Below the pieces are notes generated by a model that was not told the origin of the DNA, searched no databases, and saw only the letters and a list, made by a program, of their open reading frames with translations. Below are positions 10,725 through 61,180 of a DNA stretch of 64,000 nucleotides, piece by piece (the first letter of the stretch is position 1; each line of letters starts with the position of its first letter). The position numbers were made by a program, and so were the translations under genes. The stretch comes from an uncultured Clostridia bacterium (GTDB lineage Bacteria; Bacillota; Clostridia; TANB77; CAG-465): contig CALXJE010000003.1 of the NCBI GenBank assembly GCA_944388545.1, forward strand, positions 9,436 to 73,435. Reading direction: 5' to 3'.

Positions 10725-10860
10725 AAAGAAATAAGTGACAATAAATTAAATATACAGTAAGATTATATATAAATAAACAAGAAAAGAGGGGAAATATATG
10801 ATAAAAATATATACAATTAAAGTATATAAATAGTACAGGTATAGTTTTTGATATAAAAAC

Positions 10861-10916
10861 ATAAATAGAAAAGTTAGTTATACTAATATATGTGAAGTAT
10901 AACTAGCTTTTTATTT
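10861..10916 (+). repeat. intergenic hairpin repeat, copy A (terminator-like)
   Basis: ATAAATAGAAAAGTTAGTTATAC-loop-GTATAACTAGCTTTTT. The same stem and flanks occur at 26285, 30985 and 37000. Confidence 0.7.
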
Positions 10917-11016
10917 TATAATAAAGTATATACACCAAATATTGCTACAACAATTTAAAAGTGATATAATACCACATATATAATTTATAGTATTAGTATA
11001 GTTGTTTGGAGGAGAT

Positions 11017-12174
11017 ATGTTAAAAAAAAGAGTAATAGTGATAGTATTTCTATTATTTTCTTTGGTTTTTTCTGATTTTTCATATGCAGTAATAGAGAAA
11101 GTAGAAGATGAAAATATCTTTCAAAACACACCTGCTGTTATAGTGAAAAATAATGGTGTGGAAAATGTTGAAGATGAGCTGGACGAAATGTCTTCAGGAA
11201 GAGTTCAAAATCTTGTTGTAGAGGTATTATCAGGAGATAAAAAAGGAAAACAATATAACGCAACATATACTGTTATGGCAAGAGAAGGTAGTAATTTTGA
11301 ATTTGACATTTTAAAAGAAGGAGATAAAGTATATTTAACCATTGATGAAAGAATGGAAGAGCCATTAGTATATGTATCAGGAATACAAAGACATAATTCA
11401 TTGTTAATATTAGCAATAATATTTTTACTTGCAATATTAGTTATTGGTAGAAAGCAAGGAATTAAGACTATAATATCATTAATTATTACTATAATTATTG
11501 TATTTTTTTGGGCACTACCTAGCATAATCAATGGAGCAAGTCCACTTTGGGTAGCAATAGGAGTAAGTTCGGTTATTACTATACTTACATACATAATAAT
11601 TAGTGGATTTCATAAAAAAACAATTGCAGCTATATTAGGTACAGTAGGAGGCTTACTATTATCAGCCCTTATAGTATTAATATTTGGAAAAGCAGCTAGA
11701 CTATCTGGACTTAATGAAGAATCAATGTATTTAGCTTTTTTACCACAAGGTACACAATTTGATTTGGTAGAAATAATATTTGCTGGTATAATAATAGGAG
11801 CTTTGGGAGCATGTATGGATATGGCGATGTCAATAGCTTCTGCATTAGAAGAGATAAAAAAAGAAAATCCATCAGCAAATAGAAGAACTCTATTTAAAGC
11901 TGGAATGAATATAGGGAAAGATGTAATGGGAACAAATACAAATACTTTAATACTTGCTTATGTTGGAAGCTCTCTTACAATATTAATATTATATATGGCT
12001 TATGGAATGAGCTTTTCAGAGATAGCTGATATTGAAATAATATCAGAAGCAATAATACGTTCTTTAGCTGGAAGTATAGGTCTTATAGGAGTAATACCAC
12101 TTACAGCATTTGTTAGTAGTTTACTTTATACGAGAGATAATTATGAAGAAATAGAAGAAGAGGATGAAGCGTAA
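11017..12174 (+). CDS. YibE/F-family membrane protein
   Basis: N-terminal signal/anchor, a soluble ~100-aa domain, then about 7 TM segments. The overall layout and length match YibE/F-like proteins. I prefer the ATG at 11017 after GGAGGAG over the TTG at 11002. Confidence 0.55.
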   Translation: MLKKRVIVIVFLLFSLVFSDFSYAVIEKVEDENIFQNTPAVIVKNNGVENVEDELDEMSSGRVQNLVVEVLSGDKKGKQYNATYTVMAREGSNFEFDILKEGDKVYLTIDERMEEPLVYVSGIQRHNSLLILAIIFLLAILVIGRKQGIKTIISLIITIIIVFFWALPSIINGASPLWVAIGVSSVITILTYIIISGFHKKTIAAILGTVGGLLLSALIVLIFGKAARLSGLNEESMYLAFLPQGTQFDLVEIIFAGIIIGALGACMDMAMSIASALEEIKKENPSANRRTLFKAGMNIGKDVMGTNTNTLILAYVGSSLTILILYMAYGMSFSEIADIEIISEAIIRSLAGSIGLIGVIPLTAFVSSLLYTRDNYEEIEEEDEA

Positions 12175-30859: not shown

Positions 30860-30952
<93 letters not shown>

Positions 30953-30984
30953 ATATAGGTTTTTGCACTCAAAACACAGCCGAA

Positions 30985-31067
30985 AATATAAATAGAGAAG
31001 TTAGTTATACTAAATAAAAAGTATAGCTAGCTTTTTTGCATTTAAGAAGATATAAACATGATAAAAA
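30985..31067 (+). repeat. intergenic hairpin repeat, copy C
   Basis: ATAAATAGAGAAGTTAGTTATAC-loop-GTATAGCTAGCTTTTTT...ATTTAA...TATAAACATGATAAAAA. It shares the 5' flank with copy A and the 3' flank with copy D. Confidence 0.7.
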
Positions 31068-31106: not shown

Positions 31107-32360
31107 ATGAAAATGGAAAAGAAAAAAGGACAAAGACAAGGAATATCATTAATAGTACTTGTAATAACAATAATAATAATGATAATCTTAGCAGGAGCAA
31201 TAATCTTAGCATTAAATAATAGCGGAGCCATCGGAAGAGCAACAGAGGCAACAGATAAGAGTGATAAAGCAACACTAAAAGAAGCAGCAAATGTAGCATA
31301 CGGAGAATGGACATTAGCAAGGCAGATGGACGGGGAGACAAAAAGTGCAGATGAATATGTAAAAGAAAAGTTAAAAGCACAAGGATTTAGTGATGAAGAT
31401 TTACAATTAGTATATGTAGATGATTCAGGTAAAATGTCAACAGCAACAGTGCCAGAAGGATTTGTAGCATCAGACATAGAAGGAGAAAACACAATAGCAG
31501 GAGGCTTAGTAATATATGAAGGAACGGAGAAAGTTTCAACAGATGTAGATGCCAAAACAACAAGGAATCAATTTGTATGGGTGCCAGTAGATATATCTGA
31601 GTTTACAAGGACAGCATGGTCAAATAATGTCCCAACATCTGGTTTATCATCAATTTTTACAGAGCCATATTCATATAGCACTGATATAGGAATATCAGAA
31701 GCAAATGATTTAACAGGAGAATATGCAGAGTATAAAGCAATGAGAGCAAGTGTAGAAAAATATGGAGGCTTTTATATAGGAAGATATGAAGCAGGAAGTG
31801 AAACAGAAAGAACAAATGTGGCAAATGGAACAACAAACATGGTAGTAAAACAAGATGCATATGTATATAACTATGTAGGATGGGGACCAAGCATGACATC
31901 AGTAGAAGGAGATGTAACAGATCAAGATAGTAAAAATCAAGGAAAAGGAGCAGTAGAACTATCAAGGAATTTATATAAAGATAATATGTCAGTAAAATCG
32001 ACATTAATATATGGAGTGCAGTGGGATGCAACATTAAGATTTATAGCAGATAGTGAGCATAATGTAAGTGATAGTTCGTCATGGGGAAATTATAGTAATA
32101 ATACAGATAGAACAAGTGTAAGTCCAAATAATCCGGCAAAAACAGGAGCACATGAAAATTGGAAAGCAAAGAATATATATGACTTAGCAGGAAATGTGTG
32201 GGAATGGACAATGGAGGCCGATAGTTCTAGTATCCGTGTTTGTCGCGGTGGTGGCTTCTCGGGCCGCGGTTCTTCCTACCCGGCATCTTTTCGTGGCGAC
32301 GGTAGGCCATCTAGTTGCGGCAGTGACGGCGGCTTCCGTCTAGCACTTTATGTAGTATAG
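31107..32360 (+). CDS. pilin-like N-terminal helix + FGE-sulfatase/C-type-lectin-fold domain protein (putative DGR target), copy 1
   Basis: The N-terminus MKMEKKKGQRQG-ISLIVLVITIIIMIILAGAIILALNN is nearly identical to that of the pilin gene at 45098. The C-terminal half carries FGE/SUMF1-type motifs (GFYIGRYE, NIYDLAGNVWEWT, RGGGF, GFRLA). It has a GAGAGGA RBS and an 85-90% identical paralog at 59850..61109. Confidence 0.8.
   Translation: MKMEKKKGQRQGISLIVLVITIIIMIILAGAIILALNNSGAIGRATEATDKSDKATLKEAANVAYGEWTLARQMDGETKSADEYVKEKLKAQGFSDEDLQLVYVDDSGKMSTATVPEGFVASDIEGENTIAGGLVIYEGTEKVSTDVDAKTTRNQFVWVPVDISEFTRTAWSNNVPTSGLSSIFTEPYSYSTDIGISEANDLTGEYAEYKAMRASVEKYGGFYIGRYEAGSETERTNVANGTTNMVVKQDAYVYNYVGWGPSMTSVEGDVTDQDSKNQGKGAVELSRNLYKDNMSVKSTLIYGVQWDATLRFIADSEHNVSDSSSWGNYSNNTDRTSVSPNNPAKTGAHENWKAKNIYDLAGNVWEWTMEADSSSIRVCRGGGFSGRGSSYPASFRGDGRPSSCGSDGGFRLALYVV
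32229..32330 (+). other. putative DGR variable region (VR1)
   Basis: GC-rich, A-poor block. It differs from the paralog at 27 of 102 nt, against about 5 of 130 nt in the preceding sequence. See findings. Confidence 0.6.
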
Positions 32361-32412: not shown

Positions 32413-32976
32413 TTATTTTATAAGATAATACAGTAAATCAATATATTCGTTAGGGGTAAGTAAAGTTTCCTTACTATCTGTACAACCTATTGAATGTTTT
32501 AATTTATAGCCTTCTTTTTTTACTTTTTTTATAGCATAACAAAATATAGGAGAGTGATTGTATAAAGAAATATAAGCATTTTTTAAAAGAGTTATATAAC
32601 TATTGCTATGTCTATCTATTTCTTTTCCTTGCCAAAAAACTTTTTGTGTAATGCGCCAATCATCAAATAATGTTCGTATACTATAACAAAATGGACCTGT
32701 TTTTGAACAAACATCTTTTTGCACAAACGAATCGTTTACTTTTAGAGATTGTATAAATGATTCCATGGAAGAACAATATACATTATCAAAAGTAAATGGA
32801 TAAGGGCATAGGTTTGAAAGAGCTTTAGAGATACCTTTGCTTTTAAAACTAATATCAATGGTATTTTCCTCATTTAAAGTATAATTACATGATAAATTAT
32901 TACATTCATATAATGTTGATGTTCCTTTTGTCAGTTCTTTGCCACATTTTGGACAGTGCAAAATTAAATTACTCAT
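32413..32976 (-). CDS. zinc-ribbon protein with weak NADAR/YbiA-like C-terminal region (tentative)
   Basis: N-terminal CPKCGKEL...CNNLSCNY zinc ribbon. The segment LSNLCPYPFTFDNVYCSSMESFIQSLKV resembles the FSNF-P-F-x-G-x-Y-S-EH-FQ-K core of NADAR/DUF1768 proteins. AGGAGG RBS. Confidence 0.35.
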   Translation of the reverse strand: MSNLILHCPKCGKELTKGTSTLYECNNLSCNYTLNEENTIDISFKSKGISKALSNLCPYPFTFDNVYCSSMESFIQSLKVNDSFVQKDVCSKTGPFCYSIRTLFDDWRITQKVFWQGKEIDRHSNSYITLLKNAYISLYNHSPIFCYAIKKVKKEGYKLKHSIGCTDSKETLLTPNEYIDLLYYLIK

Positions 32977-36400: not shown

Positions 36401-36983
36401 GAAGGAGATTAAAAAGATATCTACTGTTTCTACAAAAGATCTAGAATCAGAAGAAGATAGCATAGATACAATAGAAAGAAATGAACTTGCAAAAAAATAT
36501 GATGGAACAGATCAAACTATTTGTGTAATCGTATCTTCAATGAAACAGATTTATACTAAAAATAACAAATTAATGGCATTTCTTTTGATAGAAGATTTGT
36601 ACGGAAGTATGGAAGCCGTTATTTTTCCTACAGTGTATGATAAATATGGAAAAGATTTAAAAGTGGGAGAAGTGTTTGAACTTAAAGGTAAGATAAGTTT
36701 AAAAGAAGGAGAAAAAGCAAAAATTCTAGTAAATAGCATAAGGAAACTAGGAAAATATTCAAAAATATATATAAAGGTATCAGGCGAAGTAAATGAAAAA
36801 GAAATATTAGATAAAGTAATATCTAATGTGATTGTAACAGATGGTAACGTACCAATATACATATATTTTGAAGAAAAAGATGAGTTAAAACTTCTTTCTA
36901 AAAAGTGGTGGACAGAAATAGATGATAGTTTAATAGAAAATTTGACTAATGTTTTTGGAAAATCAAACGTAAAACTTTGTTAA
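33495..36983 (+). CDS. dnaE: DNA polymerase III alpha subunit (DnaE type)
   Basis: 1162 aa with an N-terminal PHP domain (FVHLHMHTEYSLLDGA), a polymerase core (PDFDVDF, GLLKMDFLGL), and a C-terminal OB fold. Confidence 0.95.
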   Translation: MARDFVHLHMHTEYSLLDGANRIKDLVKKVKELNMNAVAITDHGNMFGVIELYKECKANGIKPILGMEAYVAPRSRLEKEGKVDSEPNHLILLAMNNIGYKNIVKLCSIGYTEGFYYKPRIDIEVLEKYNEGIIVLSGCLAGAVPRKILEGDLNGAKEIILKYKEIFKDRYYLEIQDNKYSDQMIVNQNLVKMSKELGVPLVATNDCHYLTKDDYYAHEVLLCIQTRKKITDEDRMSFEKNEFYVKSKEEMEDSFKNLLEAIDNTQRIADRCSVEIEFGHTILPHIDVGEGVSHLEYFKKICYDGLKSKYTGDRYKEAEERLKYEIEVIEKMGYIDYFLIVADFIKYAKDNGIPVGPGRGSGAGSIAAYLSGITDIDPLKFNLIFERFLNPERISMPDFDVDFCYERREEVIEYVSRKYGRDHVAQIITFGTMAARNAIRDTARALDISYQKADIVAKLVPQEIKMTIDKALNISQELKTLYETDEEVKNLIDIAKKMEGLPRHASTHAAGVVITKDPVDTYVPLYLNQDAISTQFTMTTLEELGLLKMDFLGLRTLTVISDAIYLVKKIHGIDVDFGKEYDDKEVYKMLSEGKATGVFQMESGGFRNVMKELKPNCLEDIIVMISLYRPGPMDQIPRYIKNKNNKGEIEYTHKALEPILNVTYGCMVYQEQVMQIFRDLAGYSLGRADLVRRAMGKKKLDVMNKERQIFINGLKDESGNYIIDGAVRRGIDETSANKIFDEMAEFAKYAFNKSHAAAYAVVSYQTAYLKTHYPAEFMAATMNSMLGNLDKIPEYIAECKLSNIEVLRPDINESYARFAVINSKIRFALASIKNVGEGAIETIVKERKQNGKYLGFIDFLKRVESEKVNKKCIESLIKAGAFDEIEPKYTRRDLLENFENIIESINSERRNNIKNQVNIFDTIADSKEENTVSLSIKKSNNEITKKEMLDMEKEMMGLYISGHPLDEYMKEIKKISTVSTKDLESEEDSIDTIERNELAKKYDGTDQTICVIVSSMKQIYTKNNKLMAFLLIEDLYGSMEAVIFPTVYDKYGKDLKVGEVFELKGKISLKEGEKAKILVNSIRKLGKYSKIYIKVSGEVNEKEILDKVISNVIVTDGNVPIYIYFEEKDELKLLSKKWWTEIDDSLIENLTNVFGKSNVKLC

Positions 36984-36999
36984 TAAAAATATAATTAAA

Positions 37000-37060
37000 A
37001 AAGCTAGTTATACAAGTATAGCTAGTTTTTTATATTTAATTGGTATAAACATGATAAAAA
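37000..37060 (+). repeat. intergenic hairpin repeat, copy D
   Basis: AAGCTAGTTATAC-AA-GTATAGCTAGTTTTTT...ATTTAA...TATAAACATGATAAAAA. Confidence 0.7.
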
Positions 37061-42121: not shown

Positions 42122-43726
42122 ATGGAAAGGTGTTTGGGTATATACATTGGTGATAAGATAATAAAATATGCCAAGTTGCATATGGACAAAAATAAAAATA
42201 TTGATGTAGAAGCATCAAACGTCAAATATGTCCTTGGTGGAATAAAAGAAGTGATTGATGAAATAATTGTTGAAACAAACAGTCAAAACACTCCTATTTC
42301 TATTAACATTCCGACGGAACACCATGAGAAGATGGAAATCTTAAAACAGATTTCTAGAAATGATATAGCAAGTATGGTAGAACTTGAAATTGAAGATATT
42401 GCAAATAAACAAGGTATAAATAATAAGTTATTGTTATATAAATTCAATATTCAAGATTCCCTTACAAATAGAGATAACAATAGGATCAATATATTATATA
42501 CTGATAAGACGGAAATAGAACAATATTCTAAAGTTGAAGGATTTAATATAAGTGGTGCATATCCTTTGTCAACGGTAATAACTGATCTTGTACCAAAAGA
42601 AGAAAAAAGTTATGCGGTTATTAATATAGAAGAAAGGACAACTATAAGTATTGTTTTAAATGGAAATATTATTGATACTATTGTTCTTGATGTTGGAATG
42701 AAAGAAGTTATTGACAGTTTATCAGAACAACTTGGTTCTTATGCTAAAGCTTATGATATGTGTAAAACAATTAACGTTTATACAGAGGATGAAAATCCAA
42801 ACAATCCAGAAGTAGAAAGAATAGTAGAGCCAATTTTACAAGACATATTAAGAAGAATTGAAGATAGTATAAAACCATATAGAGGAAAGTTTGAAAAGTT
42901 ATTTTTATCTGGTATGGGTGTATTATTTACTAATATAGACATACTATTTGAGCAATATTATGGTATGCCATCTGAAATATTGAAACCAGCGTTTACAAAA
43001 AGGGAAGTAGGAATAAGAAATATGGCTGAAATTATTGAAACTAATTCAGCTATAGCTCTTGCGAACTCACTTCTTACTGCATCAAAAGATGAATTAAACT
43101 TTATGATTCAAATAAATAAAAAACAACCTAAAAACAACAATGGAAATGGAGGTAAACTAAAATCAGGTCTTGATTTCTTCAGAAATGCTAAATTTAGTTT
43201 TAGTGGCGACACCTCAGATATATTACAGAAGCTTATATTTGCAGATTTAGTTATAGGTACAGTGCTTGTTGGTTATATTCTTTTTGGAGTAATATATTCT
43301 GCTCAAACTTCAAAAGTAGAAAAAGATATTAGAGCATCAATTTCTTCAATAGAAGAACAATCTGCTCTTGTAATGTCAGACGTTAATTATATAAATAATA
43401 ACAAAGATCAATATAAAGAAATAAATGATATGGTTACTGATATTGTTGATAAAATTCAATCTAATGAAATTGGTTCTTTAAGGACATATAATGTTGCAAA
43501 CTTTATGCAGAAAATAATGAAATTTATACCAAATAATATGCAACTTGTATCAATTGAGTCAAATGATAATAAGCATGTAACAATAGTTGCAAAATCAAGC
43601 TCTTATGCGGCACTAGGATATTTCGTATCACAACTTAAATTAGAAGGAATAATAAATAACGTGAAAATAGAAAGTGTAACTCATGGTACAGAAATTCAGG
43701 TAAGTATAGGCGGTGATTTACCATAA
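42122..43726 (+). CDS. pilM: type IV pilus assembly protein, PilM-PilN fusion
   Basis: An N-terminal actin-like ATPase-fold region of ~330 aa typical of PilM, then a TM helix (LIFADLVIGTVLVGYILFGVIY), a coiled coil, and a PilN-like C-terminal domain. GAGGAGAG RBS. Confidence 0.7.
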   Translation: MERCLGIYIGDKIIKYAKLHMDKNKNIDVEASNVKYVLGGIKEVIDEIIVETNSQNTPISINIPTEHHEKMEILKQISRNDIASMVELEIEDIANKQGINNKLLLYKFNIQDSLTNRDNNRINILYTDKTEIEQYSKVEGFNISGAYPLSTVITDLVPKEEKSYAVINIEERTTISIVLNGNIIDTIVLDVGMKEVIDSLSEQLGSYAKAYDMCKTINVYTEDENPNNPEVERIVEPILQDILRRIEDSIKPYRGKFEKLFLSGMGVLFTNIDILFEQYYGMPSEILKPAFTKREVGIRNMAEIIETNSAIALANSLLTASKDELNFMIQINKKQPKNNNGNGGKLKSGLDFFRNAKFSFSGDTSDILQKLIFADLVIGTVLVGYILFGVIYSAQTSKVEKDIRASISSIEEQSALVMSDVNYINNNKDQYKEINDMVTDIVDKIQSNEIGSLRTYNVANFMQKIMKFIPNNMQLVSIESNDNKHVTIVAKSSSYAALGYFVSQLKLEGIINNVKIESVTHGTEIQVSIGGDLP

Positions 43727-44514
43727 TGGATAAAAATATTATTAAAATTATAGGGCTTTTAGTTGGATTAGTTCTTTTAATAACTATTATAGTGCTTATA
43801 GCTATTAATGGTTTAACTATAGGGCCGCTTAATGCAGTATCAATATCAGGAATAGCTGATAAAAAAGATAGTGTAGAAAAGGCGAAAGATGATTTAGCTA
43901 AAGCCGAGTCACAATATGAAATTAATATGCAAAGTTTAGAAACATCAAAAAAAGAGTTTAAAACTCAAAAAGATGCATATGAACTTATTAGTGACGAAAC
44001 AATAGCAGCAATAAAAGAAGCTACTAAAGAAGAAGAATATTTTATAGAATATTTATGGATTACTTTAGGAAATTATGCAACAGCGCATAATTTGTCTCTT
44101 GCAATAGTTGAACCAGGTGGAACAGTGGCACAAGGAACAACAAATACAAATACTAATACTAATGCAGATACAGATGTAACAAACGTTTCTACCGGAACTG
44201 GGATTACAGGTAATGCATCAGGTGTAACTTCTACAGAAAATACAACTACAACTTCATCAACACAGACTGAAAATGAAGATGTAACAAATACTTCAACTAA
44301 TAACACAGTAACTAACATTACATCAAGCCAAAATGATTTAACAGTTCAAGTTAAAGGAAGTTATATAGATTTAGCAGATTTTGTATTTGAAGTTGAAAAT
44401 GACCAATCTTTAAGATTTAGATTAGATAACATTAAAATGAATTCAGCAGGAGGAAATGAAGTAATAACATCATTTAATGTAAAAGATTTTACTGTGCTAA
44501 AGTCTTTAGAGTAA
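43726..44514 (+). CDS. pilO: PilO-like pilus assembly protein with Thr/Asn-rich insert
   Basis: N-terminal TM helix, coiled coil, and a C-terminal LTVQVKGSYIDLADFVFEVEN...FRLDNIKM PilO-like fold. The start overlaps the pilMN stop (TAATG). Confidence 0.6.
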   Translation: MDKNIIKIIGLLVGLVLLITIIVLIAINGLTIGPLNAVSISGIADKKDSVEKAKDDLAKAESQYEINMQSLETSKKEFKTQKDAYELISDETIAAIKEATKEEEYFIEYLWITLGNYATAHNLSLAIVEPGGTVAQGTTNTNTNTNADTDVTNVSTGTGITGNASGVTSTENTTTTSSTQTENEDVTNTSTNNTVTNITSSQNDLTVQVKGSYIDLADFVFEVENDQSLRFRLDNIKMNSAGGNEVITSFNVKDFTVLKSLE

Positions 44515-44540
44515 TTTTATAGAAAGAAGGTAAAGAGTAT

Positions 44541-45023
44541 ATGGGTAGAAATTCATGGATAATGTTTGGAATGATAGCAATAGTAATAATGTCAATATTA
44601 CTTGTAGCTCTTCTTATATTAGTACCACAAAGCAGACCAATTACATCCGGAGTTGGCGAAGATTATGAAGCAATTACACAATCTGAGTTTTCGTATACTC
44701 AATCTAAAGATATTTCAACGGATGCAATGAAAGAAACATATAGCATAACTACTGAAGATATTGAAGAGGGAAAATCTTCTAAGTTGTATAAACAAGGAAA
44801 TACAGATCCTTTTGTAGATAAGAGCATATCTAATAATTCAGGAAATACTTCTACAGGAGGTAGTTCAAATACAGGATCTTCAGGTGGTAATACAAATACA
44901 AGTGGATCTAACAATACAAATACTAACACAAATACAAATAATAACAATAATACAGGTAATAGCAGTAATAGTGGTAATGATACTATAAATGATGAACCAC
45001 CATATTCTGCAGATAATAAATAA
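44541..45023 (+). CDS. membrane-anchored low-complexity protein in the pilus operon
   Basis: One TM helix and then an S/T/N/G-rich tail (NTNTSGSNNTNTNTNTNNNNNTGNSSNSGN). Unknown role. Confidence 0.45.
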   Translation: MGRNSWIMFGMIAIVIMSILLVALLILVPQSRPITSGVGEDYEAITQSEFSYTQSKDISTDAMKETYSITTEDIEEGKSSKLYKQGNTDPFVDKSISNNSGNTSTGGSSNTGSSGGNTNTSGSNNTNTNTNTNNNNNTGNSSNSGNDTINDEPPYSADNK

Positions 45024-45032
45024 ATTAGGTTT

Positions 45033-45075
45033 AAACATCGCCTCTTACCTTGGCGTGTTTGAATATATATTTTTT
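45033..45075 (+). terminator. hairpin upstream of the pilin gene (attenuator/terminator candidate)
   Basis: AAACATCGCC-loop-GGCGTGTTT followed by GAATATATATTTTTT. Confidence 0.35.
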
Positions 45076-45097
45076 GATGTATAGGAGGAATTATATT

Positions 45098-45478
45098 ATG
45101 AAAAAAGGTATTTCATTAATCGTATTAGTTATCACAATAATAATTATGATAATTATAGCTGGGGCTATAATATTAACATTAAATTCTTCAAACATAACAG
45201 GAAGAGCAAATTTTGCTACATTATTATCTGATAGAGCAAACTATCAAGCAAAATATGCTACATTAGTTGCAGATGCAATTGATGAAGATAATCCTTCACC
45301 AGTAATAGAAGCAGATGCATTAGGTTTTGCAACACATTCTTATGGAACTTGGAGTTTAGATAAAGCAGAAGGTTCAGTTGAATTTGTTATAAATTCTGGT
45401 GTTAACTTGAAAAATACATTTGGAATAGAATCTATAGATAGTACTAAATATCCTTGGTTAACACAAGCTGGTGCTTAA
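45098..45478 (+). CDS. type IV pilin-like protein (major-pilin candidate), Glu5-less
   Basis: ATG at 45098 after AGGAGGA. MKKG-ISLIVLVITIIIMIIIAGAIILTLN fits the prepilin pattern G-[FILVMY]-[ST]-[LT]-[LIVP] but has Val in place of Glu at +5. It is 126 aa and is followed by a strong hairpin. Confidence 0.6.
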   Translation: MKKGISLIVLVITIIIMIIIAGAIILTLNSSNITGRANFATLLSDRANYQAKYATLVADAIDEDNPSPVIEADALGFATHSYGTWSLDKAEGSVEFVINSGVNLKNTFGIESIDSTKYPWLTQAGA

Positions 45479-45522
45479 TAAATTTAATATAAAAACTAAT
45501 ACGAAAGCAAAAATGATAATGA

Positions 45523-45555
45523 GGTCATATACAAAAAGTATATGGCTTTTATTTT
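45523..45555 (+). terminator. intrinsic terminator after the pilin gene
   Basis: GGTCATATAC-loop-GTATATGGC(T) followed by TTTTATTTT. Confidence 0.55.
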
Positions 45556-45686
45556 ATATATATTTCTGAAATATTACAAGCGTGTATAAAATATATTACA
45601 TATAGTTTTATTAGTATAAATTGTATTTGATTTATGGTAGAATAAAGTAAAATATATAGTGATTTAAACATGTATTGGAGGGGCAA

Positions 45687-46481
45687 ATGGAAGTAGATCA
45701 ATTTATAAATATTGTATATATGATTAGCTTTTTTATAATAGGAACTCTATTTGGAAGTTTCTTTACTTTAGCAACATATAGAATACCTAGAAAACAAGAT
45801 ATAATGATTAAAAGATCATATTGTACAAATTGTAAACATGAATTGTCTTTTTTTGATTTGATTCCGGTTTTAAGCTATGTATTTTTAGGTGGAAAATGTA
45901 GATATTGCAAAGAAAAAATAAGTATAAGATATCCTTTGTTTGAAATAGCTAATGGATTATTTTTTCTAATTACTTATTATCTACTTGGTATTTCATGGAT
46001 TTTATTTGCAACCTTAATAATATATATAGCATTTTTCTTAGTAATTGGTTCTTATGTTATGAAATATAAAATGAATAAACAAGACCCAAATATTGCATAT
46101 AGTAAAAAAGGAGTTTTTAATGTTGAGCTTCTTGTTGCAGTTTTTGCTTTTATAATTTACTATATAGCAACAATATATACTACAAGAAACTACGAAGAAA
46201 CTTTGATGCAAGCTAAATTAAGATCAGATGCTATGAATCTAGCTGTTAATATATTAGAAGAAAACAGAGCTAAAGGCTTTGAATTTGTTGACAATGTGAA
46301 TAATGAAAATATAAAAATTGATGATCGTACATATTATTACAATTTAAGTGTTGAAGAATACGAAGATATTTCAGGAGATAGTAATACTGTGGATTTAAAA
46401 AGATTACAAGTCGATGTATCATATAAATATGATAGTAAGTCATATAACGTGAGTTTTCAAACAGTAATATATGAGGAGTAA
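45687..46481 (+). CDS. prepilin-peptidase N-terminal domain fused in frame to a GspI/PilV-like minor pilin (no A24 catalytic domain)
   Basis: Residues 1-~125 are TM1 plus the CTNCKHELSFFDLIPVLSYVFLGGKCRYCKEKISIRYPLFEIANG Zn-finger domain of PilD/ComC. No Asp/GxGD peptidase motifs follow. From the internal ATG at 46071 the sequence reads MNKQDPNIAYSKKG-VFNVELLVAVFAFIIYY, a canonical class III signal with Glu5. Confidence 0.6.
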   Translation: MEVDQFINIVYMISFFIIGTLFGSFFTLATYRIPRKQDIMIKRSYCTNCKHELSFFDLIPVLSYVFLGGKCRYCKEKISIRYPLFEIANGLFFLITYYLLGISWILFATLIIYIAFFLVIGSYVMKYKMNKQDPNIAYSKKGVFNVELLVAVFAFIIYYIATIYTTRNYEETLMQAKLRSDAMNLAVNILEENRAKGFEFVDNVNNENIKIDDRTYYYNLSVEEYEDISGDSNTVDLKRLQVDVSYKYDSKSYNVSFQTVIYEE

Positions 46482-46488
46482 TGAATAT

Positions 46489-47619
46489 ATGAATTTGAGT
46501 AGTAAAAAAGGAATAACAGTAACCTCAATAGTTGTATATGTAATTCTTTTCTTTGTATTTACAACAACAGCAATAGTTATATCATCTAGATTTAATAGAG
46601 AACTTTTTGATGATAGAGGTAAAGCTATTAACATTACAGCTATAAATAAGTTAGAATATAATTTGCTTAAAAGTGCTAAAGAAAGTAATTTAGCTCAAGG
46701 TTCTGTAGATGGAAATAAAACAACTATAACTTTTTCTAATTCAGATGTATACATTTTTGATTTAGATAATCACATAATATATAAAAATGGTGGAAAGTTA
46801 GTAAAATTTGTTAAAGAATGTAAAATAAAGTTAGTAAATAATTTAATAGATATTAATGTAACTTTAAATAAATATACAAATGAAATTACAAGAAATATAA
46901 AGGTAAGAGTACCTACAAAAGTAGTTTACACAACTAATGGATTAATTGCTTATTATGATGGAATAGATAATGTAGGTGATGGAAGTCATGATAGCAAAGT
47001 TAGAACTTGGAAAGATACAAGTACAAGTAATGTAACAGCACAGTTTAGTTCTGCATTTACAAATGATGGAATAAATGATGGCTGGGTAGAAGACGGAGTG
47101 TTATTTCCGATTGCTAGTAATGATTTTGATAGTGGATCGGATTATAATGTGACAGGTAGCTATTCAAGCAATGCGTATTCAAGCATATCATTTGAGCTTA
47201 CCTTAACAGTTTTAGATGAGCTTGGAACATTAGGAGATTCTTATATATATCCTTTAAGAATAAGAGCAAGTAGTGGTATTGTATCTTTGAATTTTGCGAT
47301 GAGAAAAAATGTAGGGTTAATGTATGGCTCTGGAAATAGTACAGTTTTTTATATAGGTAGAAATCTAGAAAAAGATAAAACATATACATTTACGTTTGTA
47401 CAAGAAAATTTGACAACGAGGGCAATATATCTTAACGGAGAATTTATTGAAAGGCAAACAGGATTTGCATTAAACCAAATAAATTTTACCAATATAATTA
47501 TGCAGGCTCATGCAAAGGGTCATTATATAATACATAGTGTTAGAGCATATAATAGAGCACTTACTGAAAATGAGGTTATTAAGAATTTTAATACAGATAA
47601 ATTAAGATATAATATCTAG
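46489..47619 (+). CDS. modular minor pilin-like protein with C-terminal LamG/concanavalin-A-like domain
   Basis: ATG at 46489 after GAGGAG. The N-terminus is MNLSSKKG-ITVTSIVVYVILFFVF. The C-terminal ~210 aa has the LamG_3-type pattern (GLIAYYDG...W.D.S......GW..DG..F......VRAYNRALTENEVIKNFN). Confidence 0.55.
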   Translation: MNLSSKKGITVTSIVVYVILFFVFTTTAIVISSRFNRELFDDRGKAINITAINKLEYNLLKSAKESNLAQGSVDGNKTTITFSNSDVYIFDLDNHIIYKNGGKLVKFVKECKIKLVNNLIDINVTLNKYTNEITRNIKVRVPTKVVYTTNGLIAYYDGIDNVGDGSHDSKVRTWKDTSTSNVTAQFSSAFTNDGINDGWVEDGVLFPIASNDFDSGSDYNVTGSYSSNAYSSISFELTLTVLDELGTLGDSYIYPLRIRASSGIVSLNFAMRKNVGLMYGSGNSTVFYIGRNLEKDKTYTFTFVQENLTTRAIYLNGEFIERQTGFALNQINFTNIIMQAHAKGHYIIHSVRAYNRALTENEVIKNFNTDKLRYNI

Positions 47620-47630
47620 GAGGAGTATTT

Positions 47631-47828
47631 ATGAAAAAAAGATTGGATAAGTTAAAAGGTTCAGGGACACTTATTATTATAATATCAGCAATTGTCTTTT
47701 TAACATATGCAACATCAACTTTTTCAGATGTTAGACATATGAAGTATATGCAAGAAAAATATGAAAATAATATTAGAGAAATATATGAGAAAGACTTAGA
47801 AGTTTTAGAGTCAGAAAATTATATATAA
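47631..47828 (+). CDS. small pilin-like protein
   Basis: AGGAGGAG RBS. MKKRLDKLKG-SGTLIIIISAIVFLTYATSTF is a basic leader, then Gly, then a hydrophobic helix. 65 aa. Confidence 0.4.
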   Translation: MKKRLDKLKGSGTLIIIISAIVFLTYATSTFSDVRHMKYMQEKYENNIREIYEKDLEVLESENYI

Positions 47829-47863
47829 AATAGGTTAATAATTACATTTGGAGGTAATATATT

Positions 47864-49504
47864 ATGTTTGAAAATATTAAAAGCAGAAGAAGTCCGTTAG
47901 GTGCAGAGCTTATAAATAAAGGACTTATAACAGAAAGACAACTAGATGAAGTATTAGAGTATCAAAAAACACATCCTGAGTTTAAAATAGGTGAAATAGT
48001 TGATATTTTAAATATGTGTGATAAAAAGAAACTTCTTTCAGTTGTAGCAGAGCAATTAAAACAAAAAAGCGTAGATTTAACCAAAGGAATATCAATTGAT
48101 TATACAGAATTCTTACCTAGAGATGTTGTTATAAATAACAAGGCTTTTCCTTTTGCTATAGATGGAACAACTGTAAAAGTAGCTTTTTCTGACCCACTTG
48201 ACGATAAGGCAACAAATGAAGTAAAATTACTTTTAGTAAATAGAGGATTTCAAATGGACAAATACTTTACACTTTATTCTATGATAATGGAACAAATACA
48301 AGATGTAAAGAATGTTCAAGATAAGTTTGTTGATACGAGAGAAAAAGATACAACAGTGTTAGTTGATAATATAATACTAACTGCTATGAAACAAAGAGCT
48401 AGTGATATACATGTAGAACCTATGGAGAAAAAAGTAAGAATTCGTTATAGAATAGACGGTGAGTTAGTAGAAGTATCAGAGCTTCCAAAATCTAGACAGG
48501 GAGTTCTTACAGGAAGACTTAAATCTATTTCTAATATGCACCAAGAAGTTACAACGGACCAGGATGGTAGAATAAGTTCATATGATAACTATAGTATCCG
48601 TGTATCTACACAAAAAAATATAAATGGTGAAAAATTTGTTCTTAGATTATTAAAGAAAAATTCAGATATAAGAACGTTAAAAGAATTAGGATTTCCAACT
48701 GAAGAAGAAGGTTTAGTAGATAGGTGTTTTGACAAGAAAAATGGTATTATATTACTTTGTGCACCAACAGGTGAAGGTAAAACAACCACATTATATAGTA
48801 TATTGGACTATTTAAATAAGCCTAATATTAATATTGTTACAATTGAAAATCCGGTTGAAATAAGAATGCCTGGAGTAAATCAAGTTGAAATTAGTCACGA
48901 TACTTCTTTTAATGGTGCGTTAAGAACAGTTTTAAGACAAGATCCAAACATTATACTTGTAGGAGAGATAAGAGATAAGGAAACAGCTCAGACTGCTGTT
49001 GAATCAGGACAAACAGGACATTTGGTTTTAAGTACAATTCATACTATAAATGCAATTGAAGCTATAACAAGAATAAGAAAAATGGGAATTTCTGATTATG
49101 ATGTAGCATCTTCATTTGTTACAATAATATCTCAAAGACTTATAAGAAGACTTTGTAATAAATGTAAAAAACCACATAATATTACTGAAGAAGAAAAAAA
49201 ATATATTAATCAAGTTGAAAAATTGACAGGATATAAATTTGATTTAAGTAAAGCTAATATGTATGAACCTGTAGGTTGTGATGAATGTTCAAATCTTGGT
49301 TATTTTGAAAGAATAGGGGTATTTGAAATATTATATGTTGATGAGTACATAAAAGAAATGATATCTTCTGGAAAATCATCAATAGAAATAAAGAAATATG
49401 CTATAGAAAATACTGATTATAATCCACTTATAATCGATTCAATAAACAAAGCATTACAAGGAATAACTACTATAGAAGAAATTCAAAAGAAGATGAGTAT
49501 ATAA
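47864..49504 (+). CDS. pilB: type IV pilus assembly ATPase PilB (GspE family)
   Basis: T2SSE N-terminal domain, Walker A APTGEGKTTT, Walker B ILVGEIRD, His box, and the tetracysteine motif CNKCKK...CDECSNLG. Confidence 0.9.
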   Translation: MFENIKSRRSPLGAELINKGLITERQLDEVLEYQKTHPEFKIGEIVDILNMCDKKKLLSVVAEQLKQKSVDLTKGISIDYTEFLPRDVVINNKAFPFAIDGTTVKVAFSDPLDDKATNEVKLLLVNRGFQMDKYFTLYSMIMEQIQDVKNVQDKFVDTREKDTTVLVDNIILTAMKQRASDIHVEPMEKKVRIRYRIDGELVEVSELPKSRQGVLTGRLKSISNMHQEVTTDQDGRISSYDNYSIRVSTQKNINGEKFVLRLLKKNSDIRTLKELGFPTEEEGLVDRCFDKKNGIILLCAPTGEGKTTTLYSILDYLNKPNINIVTIENPVEIRMPGVNQVEISHDTSFNGALRTVLRQDPNIILVGEIRDKETAQTAVESGQTGHLVLSTIHTINAIEAITRIRKMGISDYDVASSFVTIISQRLIRRLCNKCKKPHNITEEEKKYINQVEKLTGYKFDLSKANMYEPVGCDECSNLGYFERIGVFEILYVDEYIKEMISSGKSSIEIKKYAIENTDYNPLIIDSINKALQGITTIEEIQKKMSI

Positions 49505-49522
49505 ATATTATAAAGGGGTATT

Positions 49523-50608
49523 ATGGAAAAGTTTTTTAAAATCTTAGACGAAGCTCTAAAACTCGATGCATCAGATATCCATTTGCTTAATGGTAAACCT
49601 CCAGTTTTTAGAGTAGAAAAAAAACTTATAGAATTTAACGAGATAGAACCACTTACTAAATACGATTTAGAAGGTTTAATGGAATATTTAGTTAATGATA
49701 GTATTGAGCTTGTAGATATATTTGAAAATGCAAAAAAATTAGATATATCTTATGAATATATGAAAAAAAGATTTAGAGTAAATGCAAGTATGTCTTTTGG
49801 GGTTCCTACATTTTCTATAAGAATAATTCAAAATGAAGAAATTGATATAAAGAAATTTAACTTGGAAAAAATGGTAGGAATAATTAAAAAGTTTAACTCG
49901 GGACTTATTCTTATAACGGGAAAAGTTAATTCTGGTAAAACTACTACATTAAATGCATATGTTCAAACTATTAATAAAGAGAGAAATAAAAAGGTAGTAA
50001 TGCTAGAAGAACCAATAGAACATAGACATACATCTGATAAATGTGTTATAGTTCAAAAAGAAGTAGGCAAGACAGGAGACGTACCTTCATATTATGACGG
50101 AGTAATAAATTTGCTTAGAGAAGATGCAGATATTGCAATAGTTGGTGAGATAAGGGACAGGCAAACAATGGATGCAGTTTTAGACTTAGCAGAATCAGGT
50201 ACTTTGGTAATAGGTACACTTCATACAAGAGCTTGTGGTGAAACATTAGATAGGATATTAGGTCTTTATTCGCCTAGTGAGCAAAAATCAATAAAATATA
50301 TATTATCTACAGTTTTGAAAGCAGTAGTGTCACAAAAACTTGTTAAAGATAAAGAGGATCATGTAATAATGGTGCCAGAAGTAATGATTAATAATTCTAC
50401 TATTTCTGCTCTTATAAGGCAAGAAAACTTTAGTATTTCTGAAATACAAGATGCCATAGACAGAAAAAGTGAAAAAGGAATGATAAGTTTTGAAAGATCA
50501 TTTGCTAAGTTATATGAAGATGGTCAAATAACACTAGAAAGTATAAGAGAGAATGTTGAAGACGAGCAATACCAATATATATTGAAACTATTAGGAGGGG
50601 ATAATTAG
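49523..50608 (+). CDS. pilT: pilus retraction ATPase PilT
   Basis: 361 aa with ASDIHL, Walker A GKVNSGKTTT, AIVGEIRD, and the TLHT His box. Confidence 0.85.
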   Translation: MEKFFKILDEALKLDASDIHLLNGKPPVFRVEKKLIEFNEIEPLTKYDLEGLMEYLVNDSIELVDIFENAKKLDISYEYMKKRFRVNASMSFGVPTFSIRIIQNEEIDIKKFNLEKMVGIIKKFNSGLILITGKVNSGKTTTLNAYVQTINKERNKKVVMLEEPIEHRHTSDKCVIVQKEVGKTGDVPSYYDGVINLLREDADIAIVGEIRDRQTMDAVLDLAESGTLVIGTLHTRACGETLDRILGLYSPSEQKSIKYILSTVLKAVVSQKLVKDKEDHVIMVPEVMINNSTISALIRQENFSISEIQDAIDRKSEKGMISFERSFAKLYEDGQITLESIRENVEDEQYQYILKLLGGDN

Positions 50609-51969
50609 TGCCAGATTTTAAATATAGAGCGGTTTTAAGAAATGGAAAAATAATAAGAGGAATTCTTAACGCAAAATCAAAAGCAGAAGTAATACAGATG
50701 ATAAAAGACACTAAAATGACTCCTATATCTATAAATGCAAAGAAAATAAAAAGACCTGCTGTTCAAAAGAAAAAAATAGATTTAAAAAAAATAAGTAAGG
50801 TTGCAGATAAGAATAGTAAAAGATCAAGATCATTTGCTATGAATGCTCCTAAAGGGGCAACATCTAAAAAAGACAAAATTATGTCTATACTTACTTCTGA
50901 TGTAAGTTTTTCAAGAGGTGTTAAGCCAAAAGATGTCCTTATATTTACAAATGCTTTGTATATACTAAAAAAAGCAAAATTTAATAATATAACAGCGCTA
51001 GAATCAGTATACAATAGTACAGAAGATAAAAAGTTAAAAGACATAATTGAAGAAATAATTATAGGAGTTGAATCAGGAGAAACAATATATTCTACTATGG
51101 CGAAATACCCAAATGTATTTCCACCACTTTATGCTAATTTCGTAAAAGTTGGTGAAGAATCAGGGTCACTTGATACAGCACTTCAATATGGTAGACAATA
51201 CATGGAAAGTAGTATAAAGCTTAGAAAAACAATTAGAGGTATATTAATTCCAAAAATATTACTATTTGTTATTGTTATAGCATTAATGATGGTAGCGTTA
51301 TTATTTGGTGCTCCTTTAATAGAAAATGTATATGATATGTTTGGATCTGATAGAGAGCTTCCAGCAGCTACTCAGGCAGCTATAGCATTTTCTGAAGCTA
51401 TAATAAATAATTGGTATATTGTTTTAGGTGTTATAGTAGCAATTTATATAGGATTTAGAGTATATATATCTACACCTATGGGTAGATATAATTGGGATAA
51501 ATTAAAAATTAAATTCCCTATATTTGGAAGGCTAAACTTGAATATTTTAACAAATAAATTCTTCCAGGCAATGTCACTTAACTTAAGAAACGGAATGAGA
51601 TTACAAGATAGTTTAGAGATTTCAAAAAGTGTTACTAATAACTATTATTTCCTAGCTCTTATAGAGACAGGAAAAAACAATCTTTTATCTGGAGGAACTT
51701 GGGTTGACCCATTTGAAATAGAAGGGGCATTTTCTCCTATGATTTTAGAAATGATTAATATAGGTATGCAAACAGACCTTGTTGAGATGATGTCTAAAAT
51801 AGAAGAGTATGTTGAAGAAGAAATTAATGAATCAATTAATAGAATTATTAAGATACTACCAGATTTAATGTATGTATTCGTAGGTATTGTACTTATAATA
51901 TTCGTAATAACAGTAATGATTCCACTTATAGATGTATACATGGGAGGATTCTTATTTGATACATTATAA
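50608..51969 (+). CDS. pilC: type IV pilus platform protein PilC (GspF family)
   Basis: Two T2SSF repeats with 3 TM segments. The GTG start overlaps the pilT stop, after a GGAGGGG RBS. Confidence 0.85.
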   Translation: MPDFKYRAVLRNGKIIRGILNAKSKAEVIQMIKDTKMTPISINAKKIKRPAVQKKKIDLKKISKVADKNSKRSRSFAMNAPKGATSKKDKIMSILTSDVSFSRGVKPKDVLIFTNALYILKKAKFNNITALESVYNSTEDKKLKDIIEEIIIGVESGETIYSTMAKYPNVFPPLYANFVKVGEESGSLDTALQYGRQYMESSIKLRKTIRGILIPKILLFVIVIALMMVALLFGAPLIENVYDMFGSDRELPAATQAAIAFSEAIINNWYIVLGVIVAIYIGFRVYISTPMGRYNWDKLKIKFPIFGRLNLNILTNKFFQAMSLNLRNGMRLQDSLEISKSVTNNYYFLALIETGKNNLLSGGTWVDPFEIEGAFSPMILEMINIGMQTDLVEMMSKIEEYVEEEINESINRIIKILPDLMYVFVGIVLIIFVITVMIPLIDVYMGGFLFDTL

Positions 51970-59849: not shown

Positions 59850-61109
59850 ATGAAAATGGAAACAAAGAACAGCCAGAGGGAAGGAATATCTTTAATAGTG
59901 CTGGTAATAACAATAATAATAATGATAATACTAGCAGGAGCAATAATATTAACATTAAATAATAGTGGAATAATCGGAAGAGCAGAGGAAGCACGAGATA
60001 AAAGTGACACATCAACACTAAAAGAGGCAGCAAATATAGCATACTCAGAATGGACATTAGCAAGACAGATGGACGGGGAGACAAAAAGTGCAGATGCATA
60101 TGTTAAAGATAAGTTAAAAGATCAAGGTTTTAGTGACGAAGATTTACAACTAGTATATATAGAAGATACAGGTAAGATATTGATAGCAACAGTGCCAGAA
60201 GGATTTGTAGCATCAGATATAGAAGGAGAAAATACAGTAGCAGAAGGACTAGTAATATATGAAGGATCCGAGAAAGTATCAACAGATACAGATGCAAAGA
60301 CAACAAGAAATCAATTTGTATGGGTGCCAGTAGATATATCAGAGTTTGAGAGAACAGCCTGGTCAAATAATGCACCAGCATCTGGTTTATCATCAATTTT
60401 TACAGAGCCATATTCATATAGCACTGATATAGGTATATCAGAAGTAAATGATTTAACAGGAGAATATGCAGAGTATAAAGCGATGAAAGCAAGTGTAGAA
60501 AAATATGGAGGCTTTTATATAGGAAGATATGAAGCAGGAAGTGAGACAGAAAGAACTAATGTAGCTAATGGGACGACAAACATGGTAGCAAAAAAAGATG
60601 CATATGTATATAATTATGTAGGATGGGGACAAGATATGTCAACTACAGAAGGTGATGTGTATGATTGGGATTATAATTTAAATCAAGGAAAAGGAGCAGT
60701 AGAACTATCAAGAAATTTATATAAAGATAGTGATTCAGTAAAATCAACATTAATATATAGTGTGCAGTGGGATGCAGTATTAAGGTTTATAGCAGATAGT
60801 GAGCATAATGTAACAGATAGTACATCATGGGGAAATTATTATAATAATCCAGATAGAACAAGTGTAAGTCCAAATATTCCAGCGAAAACAGGAGCACATG
60901 AAAATTGGAAAGCAAAGAATATATATGATTTAGCAGGAAATGTGTGGGAATGGACAATGGAGGCCGATAGTTCTATTTTCCGTGTTGGTCGCGGTGGTAG
61001 CTACTCGCGCTACGGTTCTAACTACCCAGCCTCTTATCGTACCTACGTTAGTCCGTCTTGGTGCGTCAGTAGCGCCGGCTTCCGTCTAGCACTTTATGTT
61101 ATTGTTTAA
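59850..61109 (+). CDS. pilin-like N-terminal helix + FGE-sulfatase/C-type-lectin-fold domain protein (putative DGR target), copy 2
   Basis: MKMETKNSQREG-ISLIVLVITIIIMIILAGAIILTLNN. It has the same domain motifs as 31107..32360 (NIYDLAGNVWEWT, RGGSY, GFRLA). Homology to copy 1 begins ~35 nt upstream of the ATG and ends at ...gcactttatgt. Confidence 0.8.
   Translation: MKMETKNSQREGISLIVLVITIIIMIILAGAIILTLNNSGIIGRAEEARDKSDTSTLKEAANIAYSEWTLARQMDGETKSADAYVKDKLKDQGFSDEDLQLVYIEDTGKILIATVPEGFVASDIEGENTVAEGLVIYEGSEKVSTDTDAKTTRNQFVWVPVDISEFERTAWSNNAPASGLSSIFTEPYSYSTDIGISEVNDLTGEYAEYKAMKASVEKYGGFYIGRYEAGSETERTNVANGTTNMVAKKDAYVYNYVGWGQDMSTTEGDVYDWDYNLNQGKGAVELSRNLYKDSDSVKSTLIYSVQWDAVLRFIADSEHNVTDSTSWGNYYNNPDRTSVSPNIPAKTGAHENWKAKNIYDLAGNVWEWTMEADSSIFRVGRGGSYSRYGSNYPASYRTYVSPSWCVSSAGFRLALYVIV
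60975..61076 (+). other. putative DGR variable region (VR2)
   Basis: Counterpart of 32229..32330, with the same A-free scaffold codons but different residues at the variable codons. Confidence 0.6.
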
Positions 61110-61148: not shown

Positions 61149-61180
61149 AAGAGAATAAGCCTATAAGGGTTTATTCTCTT
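61149..61180. terminator. hairpin between convergent genes
   Basis: AAGAGAATAAGCC-TATAA-GGGTTTATTCTCTT. It overlaps the engB stop codon. Confidence 0.45.

Follow-up and report, generated by a model that had tools for sequence, protein, structure and literature searches.

No natural system of targeted protein hypermutation is known in prokaryotes other than diversity-generating retroelements (DGRs). This study concerns a stretch of 64,000 nucleotides from an uncultured Clostridia bacterium (contig CALXJE010000003.1, positions 9,436 to 73,435; hereafter the window), which carries two paralogous genes, copy 1 and copy 2, each ending in a short region of the kind rewritten by such elements. In copy 2 this region (60966-61076) is probably the variable region of a remote DGR target, served in trans by a cassette located elsewhere in the genome.

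Related systems

The variable protein TvpA of Treponema denticola is a lipoprotein. Like the window proteins, it bears a C-terminal variable region on a C-type-lectin fold of the formylglycine-generating enzyme (FGE) type (structure 2Y3C), and its DGR is cellular rather than phage-borne. A single T. denticola cassette is believed to act on a number of related genes dispersed over the chromosome, the arrangement also proposed here, and seven remote DGR targets are recorded in Treponema (PMC5758913). The window proteins differ from TvpA, with which they share about 16% identity, in starting with a prepilin-like hydrophobic segment, and the system described here is known from its target genes alone.

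A curated set of 372 DGRs includes 45 with non-adjacent targets, the majority of them not carried by phages, and accessory genes of the MutS-like (MSL) class together with Avd accompany 16 DGRs, including the Legionella one (PMC5758913). Large metagenome surveys of DGRs state that remote targets are undetectable to them (PMC8144416); a class of targets lying far from the reverse transcriptase (RT) would therefore be systematically missed by such surveys.

The Bordetella phage BPP-1 element, comprising Mtd, Avd, a template and the RT Brt, resembles the mechanism considered here in its pairing of template and variable region, adenine mutagenesis, C-type-lectin (CLec) C-terminus and 3' initiation of mutagenic homing (IMH) site, and Brt detects the RTs of relatives of the window genes at E = 1e-38. 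BPP-1 differs in being phage-borne, in having a single adjacent target and in lacking a MutS-like gene. More similar targets are found in two complete cassettes on human-gut metagenome contigs, L081 and L071 (both with target, MSL, bAvd, RT and template), which encode homologs of the window proteins (34-38% identity) with the layout RV.RGG...P.S.R...GFR.ALY. These targets adjoin an RT, whereas the window copies lie at least 9-35 kb from any cassette, and the template is downstream of the RT in L081 but upstream of it in BPP-1. The L081 target has a plain membrane anchor, unlike the window copies, while that of another relative, L026, is pilin-like. L081 shares the combination of MSL and Avd with the Legionella-type DGRs, and at the locus L002, which belongs to the species of the window, an MSL gene is retained beside a paralog; unlike in Legionella-type DGRs, no MSL gene adjoins either window copy. 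A remote DGR variable region is in itself known, the pilin-like N-terminus and the dispersal in multiple copies being less usual, and the family of targets concerned here has been little described.

Two paralogous genes in the window

The two genes and their 3' parts are located as follows.

59850..61109, + strand: copy 2 target gene, 419 aa in the list of open reading frames (ORFs); the database version, P0001, starts at 59856
31107..32360, + strand: copy 1 target gene, paralog of copy 2, 417 aa
60966..61076, + strand: variable region proper of copy 2, 37 codons from GAT (60966) to GCC (61076), delimited from codon tables
32220..32330, + strand: variable region of copy 1, delimited from codon tables and composition
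61077..61099, + strand: invariant 3' boundary GGCTTCCGTCTAGCACTTTATGT of copy 2, candidate IMH
32331..32353, + strand: the same invariant 3' boundary in copy 1, candidate IMH
60960..61099, + strand: stretch predicted to be homologous to the template repeat (GAGGCC...GCACTTTATGT), from the jump in GC content here and the cassettes of relatives

At its N-terminus copy 2 has a hydrophobic segment of pilin-like appearance, which is followed by a central domain and then by the FGE/C-type-lectin domain whose C-terminal end is the variable region; it can be aligned with copy 1 from end to end. Its variable region contains every site that varies among the paralogs with the same scaffold. The only two places in the window with the 23-nt boundary GGCTTCCGTCTAGCACTTTATGT are 32331 and 61077, against a chance expectation of 0 (100 shuffles).

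The gene bodies and the variable regions have diverged in different ways. In the bodies, 129 of 1113 sites differ between the copies (11.6%), mostly at third codon positions (33/30/66 for positions 1, 2 and 3), and transitions (73) outnumber transversions (56). In the variable regions, 25 of 111 sites differ (22.5%), mostly at codon positions 1 and 2 (10/10/5), and transversions (17) outnumber transitions (8). The GC content of the 111-nt variable span is 0.53 in copy 2 and 0.60 in copy 1, compared with 0.34 in the gene bodies and 0.275 in the whole window, and on the composition profile the rise coincides exactly with the variable region.

These comparisons bear on a first-pass annotation made from the sequence of the window, which had proposed a second DGR-type variable region at 60955-61095. 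The sequence and both translations given there were correct, and the distance of about 28 kb between the copies, which are full-length paralogs spaced about 28.7 kb from start to start, was borne out, as were the identity of their 3' boundaries and the greater number of adenines kept in copy 2 (16, against 12 in copy 1).

The C-terminal fold is of a type that tolerates variation, as judged from Pfam, the AlphaFold model and its match in the Protein Data Bank (PDB). Pfam FGE-sulfatase was detected in copy 1 above the curated cut-off (E = 3.1e-6) and in residues 326-414 of copy 2 below it (E = 4.5e-4). The AlphaFold model, built with 79 homologs, has a mean pLDDT of 90.4 and an FGE/C-type-lectin fold with the variable region at its C-terminus; its best PDB match is 2Y3C, the DGR variable protein TvpA mentioned above, followed by FGE enzymes.

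A separate observation was made just upstream of the variable regions. At 60946-60948 and 32200-32202, the codon x of the motif GNVxEW is hypervariable among paralogs (W, Y, R, V, L, H, S, D). The differences involve several bases, lie upstream of the boundary of adenine mutagenesis and stand beside invariant adenine-containing codons; DGR mutagenesis as understood here leaves them unexplained.

Dispersed paralogs in the species

A second sample (ERZ24773294) contains the same species, as indicated by identical housekeeping proteins of 245 and 246 residues. Its contigs, equal in coverage (7.6-8.3x), have paralogs of the window genes between mutS and mutL (L001), between gyrB and infC (L002) and at pflA (L103, where the contig stops inside this copy 1 ortholog), with further ones beside an ISL3 transposase (L105) and beside fur (L106). 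Dispersed paralogs thus number at least five or six in the species, four of which (copy 1, copy 2, L001 and L106) have identical or near-identical scaffolds at non-adenine positions, which supports the earlier suggestion that one template serves several dispersed targets. The further paralogs with the conserved boundary that had been proposed as an object of search were found in this second strain, in L001, L105 and L106.

Upstream leaders of about 250 nt divide the paralogs into subgroups, copy 1 with L001 and L002 with L105, and the latter pair also has a deviant variable-region scaffold in common. L002 carries at 11419-11883, after the paralog, an orphan MutS_I-domain (MSL) gene homologous to the MSL gene of L081 (E = 6e-11); no avd, RT or template was found beside it.

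Adenine signature and predicted template

Invariant and variable sites of the 111-nt region were counted in copy 1, copy 2 and the L001 paralog, which are identical at 80 sites and vary at 31. Adenine occupies 6 of the 80 invariant sites (7.5%, leaving 92.5% non-A), compared with 42.9% in the gene body (Fisher p = 1e-11). Three different bases are found at 8 of the 31 variable sites, where about 2.3 would be expected under a uniform-rate model. The scaffold is GC-rich and nearly free of adenine, and the variable codons keep a fixed C in the third position.

The template was predicted by taking each variable site as a template adenine, and encodes ADRSNNRVSRGGNYSSNGSNYPASYRNNDRPSKCDSNNGFRLAL; its AAC-rich make-up is typical of DGR templates. 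It would begin with GAGGCC GAT AGA TCT AAT AAC CGT GTT A(G/A)T CGC GGT GGT AAC TAC TCG AGC AAC GGT, continue with TCT AAC TAC CCA GCA TCT TAT CGT AAC AAC (G/A)AT AGA CCA TCT AAA TGC and end in GAC AGT AAC AAC GGC TTC CGT CTA GCA CTC TA, corresponding to the pattern GAGGCCNNTAGNTCTNNTNNCCGTGTTNNTCGCGGTGGTNNC...GGCTTCCGTCTAGCACTCTA.

As an independent test, the A sites predicted from copy 1, copy 2 and L001 were checked on L106. This paralog differs from the predicted template at 22 of the 40 predicted A sites and at 5 of the 97 non-A sites (p = 3e-10), so that the predicted A sites capture 22 of its 27 differences; two or three of the other five probably represent hidden adenines. No difference was seen between copy 1, copy 2 and L001 at the 97 predicted non-adenine positions, while their gene bodies differ by 10-13%, which argues that the scaffold was rewritten after the paralogs had diverged.

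The boundary GGCTTCCGTCTAGCACTTTATGT is identical in copy 1, copy 2, L001, L105 and L106, its adenines never vary, and it presumably serves as the IMH. The variable regions of the window end in CACTTTA, as do those of the cassette-bearing relatives. Downstream of copy 2, one further element was considered.

61149..61180, no strand assigned: terminator-like hairpin between the convergent copy 2 and engB, from the sequence and its predicted fold

This hairpin is a possible but unproven counterpart of the hairpin that lies downstream of DGR target sites. A conserved downstream hairpin was rejected as homing signal, the structures after copy 1 and copy 2 being unrelated and terminator-like; with no conservation between the copies, a homing role for the hairpin is conjectural.

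Relatives with complete cassettes

The protein search returned thousands of relatives, the closest of which are 70-83% identical in the body and have C-termini that are hypervariable on the fixed scaffold RVxRGGxYxxxGSxxPASxRxxxSPSxCxSxxGFRLALYVV. In reference genomes, all relatives belong to metagenome-assembled genomes (MAGs) of uncultured gut Clostridia, one of which has at least eight paralogs.

A Brt-like RT (E down to 1e-38) lies immediately downstream of the family member in 7 of 80 fetched metagenome loci: L081, L071, L046, L018, L064, L077 and, truncated, L026. The L081 cassette contains, in this order, the target, a MutS_I-domain gene of the MSL class, bAvd, an RVT_1 RT with the motifs IGNYTSQ and YMDD, and the template repeat. 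In these cassettes the homology between template and variable region extends from the equivalent AGGCC to CACT(C/T)TA, and the mismatches between the two are located at template A in 21 of 24 cases in L071, 21 of 23 in L081, 15 of 19 in L026 and 5 of 5 in L046.

A single template, common to L071 and L081, was also compared with eight orthologous variable regions from eight metagenome contigs. Each of them differs from the template at 21-25 positions, all are mutually distinct, and 169 of the 184 mismatches (92%) are at template A. Eight of the remaining 15 represent one recurrent position, CTCTA in the template (CACTCTA) against CTTTA in the variable region (CACTTTA), a difference of the expected IMH/IMH* type. 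Judging from these sequences, diversification is active in the related lineage. The same adenine-specific cassettes, taken with the way in which substitutions are distributed, the GC-rich scaffold poor in adenine and the FGE/CLec fold, fit the assignment of the window sequence to DGR-type variable regions made in the first-pass annotation.

In L026, the gene after a pilin-like target joins a shortened RT in frame with the template, which indicates that pilin-like members are also DGR targets and that cassettes in this family decay. The fusion is a 170-residue ORF (L026 11679-12191) consisting of the N-terminal third of a DGR RT and the template repeat, and a small SSB-like ORF comes after it.

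A GC-shifted tail was recorded in 65 of 94 family members. For 30 of these the sequence continues at least 3.5 kb downstream, and an RT is close by in only 2. The placement of the window copies, which had been considered atypical for DGRs, is therefore typical of this family and no anomaly, remote targets being documented elsewhere as well. Remoteness is thus the norm in this family: most signature-bearing members lack an RT over a distance of several kb, and a genome has several copies placed among housekeeping genes. As to mechanism there is nothing new here, the locus being a well-supported ordinary case of a trans-acting DGR target.

Two other kinds of members were noted. P0098 is a non-diversified one, without GC shift and identical on at least 24 contigs. 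In the pairs P0005/P0009, P0014/P0015 and P0121/P0004, the variable region or the C-terminal half is identical and the bodies or endings differ, as a result of either recombination between paralogs or chimeric metagenome assemblies across repeats.

Search for the cassette

No third variable-region copy or template repeat was found in the window by blastn beyond the two variable regions, and no RT by phmmer with BPP-1 Brt. The search was extended with flanking DNA of the same genome, L099 reaching 9.3 kb upstream of the window and L097 6.9 kb downstream (about 16 kb in total; 100% identical DNA, apparently from the same sample), which together with the window make up essentially the whole source contig of 80,396 bp. 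When the six-frame ORFs of the window and of L001-L012 and L097-L106 were searched by phmmer, with Brt and with RT, Avd and MSL from L081 as queries, only the L002 MSL gene was matched, and neither window copy has an Avd or MSL homolog near it. The earlier remark that both copies lack an adjacent RT or accessory gene thus extends to the whole contig of about 80 kb. An accessory gene (Avd, HRDC or MSL) is, however, a trait of the cassette rather than of a remote target.

A profile search with the RTs of relatives gave 4,911 proteins, none of which could be assigned to this genome. No member of the target family was found in IMG/VR, and thus there is no sign of a phage-borne element. The assignment to a DGR in this genome is accordingly made at the family level and from indirect evidence, and we infer that both a template and an RT exist in it.

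Origin of the variable regions

A DGR origin of these regions, with the cassette either still present or lost, is very likely. The explanation preferred here, a remote target with the cassette elsewhere in the genome, is a probable one. It would place the cassette (RT, Avd, probably a MutS-like gene and a template repeat of about 136 nt) outside the contig of about 80 kb. Template RNA would be copied into cDNA by an error-prone RT misreading only adenines, and the cDNA would take the place of the sequence homologous to it in the 3' part of every target, with the invariant boundary GGCTTCCGTCTAGCACTTTA guiding the homing. A single template could in this way serve copy 1, copy 2 and other paralogs that are dispersed between housekeeping genes, giving each a different ligand-binding surface on the common FGE/C-type-lectin scaffold. 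Several observations weigh against this explanation. The contig contains no RT, Avd, MutS-like gene or template-like sequence, and degenerate scaffold patterns had 0 matches in the genome, metagenome and viral contig collections. These collections lack this genome, as the window's own variable regions are also unmatched in them, and the template sequence is consequently predicted and not observed. L002 and L105 have 13-14 non-adenine differences in the scaffold, several of them common to both; the template of their last rewriting must therefore have been another one or an older version. The variable regions of P0121 and P0004 are identical. Between samples, no change was seen at copy 2 that would point to current activity, the other assemblies being 100% identical and probably from the same sample. 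Third-position divergence is not significantly lower in the variable regions than in the bodies (5/37 against 66/371) and gives no independent support; an argument from homogenised synonymous sites was dropped for this reason. The truncated RT of L026 and the orphan MSL gene of L002 are decayed cassettes of related lineages, and hence loss of the element in this genome is possible too.

Much of the same evidence would be accommodated if the variable regions had been written by a DGR in the past and, the cassette having since been lost or inactivated, were now frozen as ordinary coding sequence. The empty contig, the decay seen in L026 and in L002 of the same species, the drift of L002 and L105 at scaffold positions and the lack of between-sample differences in the variable regions of this species all agree with such a relic. 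It is nevertheless rather unlikely, since copy 1, copy 2 and L001 agree at all 97 predicted non-A positions while their bodies differ, the absence of a cassette covers only about 80 kb of the genome, and most family members with the variable-region signature are far from any RT. Ordinary divergence of paralogs under diversifying selection, possibly with gene conversion and without any retroelement, has in its favour that the family is multi-copy and mosaic, P0005/P0009 and P0014/P0015 joining identical C-termini to different bodies, and that the residue x of GNVxEW varies upstream of the variable region in a manner that does not fit adenine mutagenesis. It would leave unexplained the near absence of adenine at fixed sites, the fixed third-position C, the excess of transversions, the three-state sites, the local jump in GC and the relatives' RT and template with their adenine-specific mismatches, and is disfavoured as very improbable. 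That copy 2 or its variable stretch is a chimeric or mis-joined product of metagenome assembly is scarcely credible: both copies have unique, distinct flanks and distinct bodies, the copy 2 variable region and its downstream flank are reproduced exactly in two other assemblies, and the copy 1 upstream flank is reproduced in the second strain. The points that speak for such an artefact are that other, independent assemblies are interrupted within these genes (L097 begins at window position 60695 and L098 at 60946, while L102 and L103 end in the N-terminal part) and that P0121 combines the L001 variable region with an ending of the copy 2 type, YVIV.

Pilin-like N-terminus and type IV pilus cluster

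A possible connection with type IV pili is the most interesting point of the finding, and involves the following features of the window.

59883..59960, + strand: N-terminal segment G-ISLIVLVITIIIMIILAGAIILTLN of copy 2, resembling a class-III (prepilin-type) signal or a membrane anchor, from repeat family D3 and translations
42122..51969, + strand: complete type IV pilus cluster between the two targets, with PilM/N-like, pilin-like, peptidase, LamG protein, PilB, PilT and PilC genes
45095..45478, + strand: small pilin-like gene, 127 aa, with an N-terminus as in both targets, immediately upstream of the prepilin peptidase gene
45675..46481, + strand: prepilin peptidase (peptidase A24 N-terminal domain; Pfam PF06750, E = 4e-31)

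Repeat family D3 relates the 5' ends of the two targets to that of the small pilin-like gene, with 81% nucleotide identity among 31138-31217, 45105-45184 and 59881-59960. The encoded N-terminus, …QREG-ISLIVLVITIIIMIILAGAIILTLN, begins with a short, charged leader; a glycine comes next, and then a long hydrophobic helix. Copy 2 accordingly has the leader, Gly and hydrophobic stretch of a prepilin motif (…QREG|ISLIVLVITIIIMIILAG), with Val and not Glu at position +5. Pfam N_methyl was not detected in copy 2 and was weak, below the cut-off, in the relative L026 (E = 0.0035), and in the AlphaFold model the N-terminal region is helical without the canonical alpha-beta roll of pilins. For these reasons, the absence of Glu5, the undetected N_methyl and the non-canonical model, the pilin reading stays a hypothesis. 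The LamG-domain gene (46471-47619) also has a pilin-like N-terminus, and both it and the pilin-like gene at 45095-45478 are without the usual Glu5.

Both a prepilin peptidase and the pilus assembly machinery are present in the genome, PilB, PilT and PilC being encoded at 47864-51969. The A24 peptidase is a candidate for the enzyme that processes the target proteins. These proteins most probably act as adhesins at the cell surface, and the type IV pilus of the window possibly displays or assembles them. A comparable design is known from the modular pilins PilB and PilC of Streptococcus sanguinis (PMC8179133, PMC9934059), which combine a pilin-type N-terminus with a grafted adhesive or lectin module in a genome with pilus machinery. 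The S. sanguinis proteins differ in that they are not known to be hypervariable and have their genes within the pilus locus, whereas the window proteins are without Glu5 and a detected N_methyl; membership of the latter among modular type IV pilins is an unproven proposal.

A broader proposal can be put forward tentatively, with some doubt. The dispersed repertoire, of at least five or six genes, might encode DGR-diversified prepilin-type proteins that are processed by the peptidase and placed on type IV pili or as their tips, one trans-acting template continuously re-tuning a panel of lectin-like adhesins. If the pilin-like N-terminus is functional, DGR diversification would be linked to type IV pilus adhesion in abundant gut Firmicutes. 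In the searchable literature no description of DGR-diversified type IV pilins in Firmicutes was found, apart from one passing mention of a GspG-type pilin domain with a variable region.

Other features near the target genes

An (AC)17 repeat at 30895-30928 is located inside a small leader ORF (start about 30861) between pflA and copy 1. The repeat number is equal in the second strain (L103), and the homologous leader upstream of L001 has only (AC)3. The repeat could act as a slipped-strand switch for phase variation of copy 1.

The window has three copies of a palindromic terminator-like element (…AAATAGAGAAGTTAGTTATAC…GTATAGCTAGCTTTTTT), at 10853-10934, 30980-31058 and 36983-37020, one of them within the leader that precedes copy 1. 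The gene downstream of copy 1 (32413-32976, - strand), previously described as a zinc-ribbon gene, matches Pfam Phage_30_3 (bacteriophage GP30.3) with E = 7e-27.

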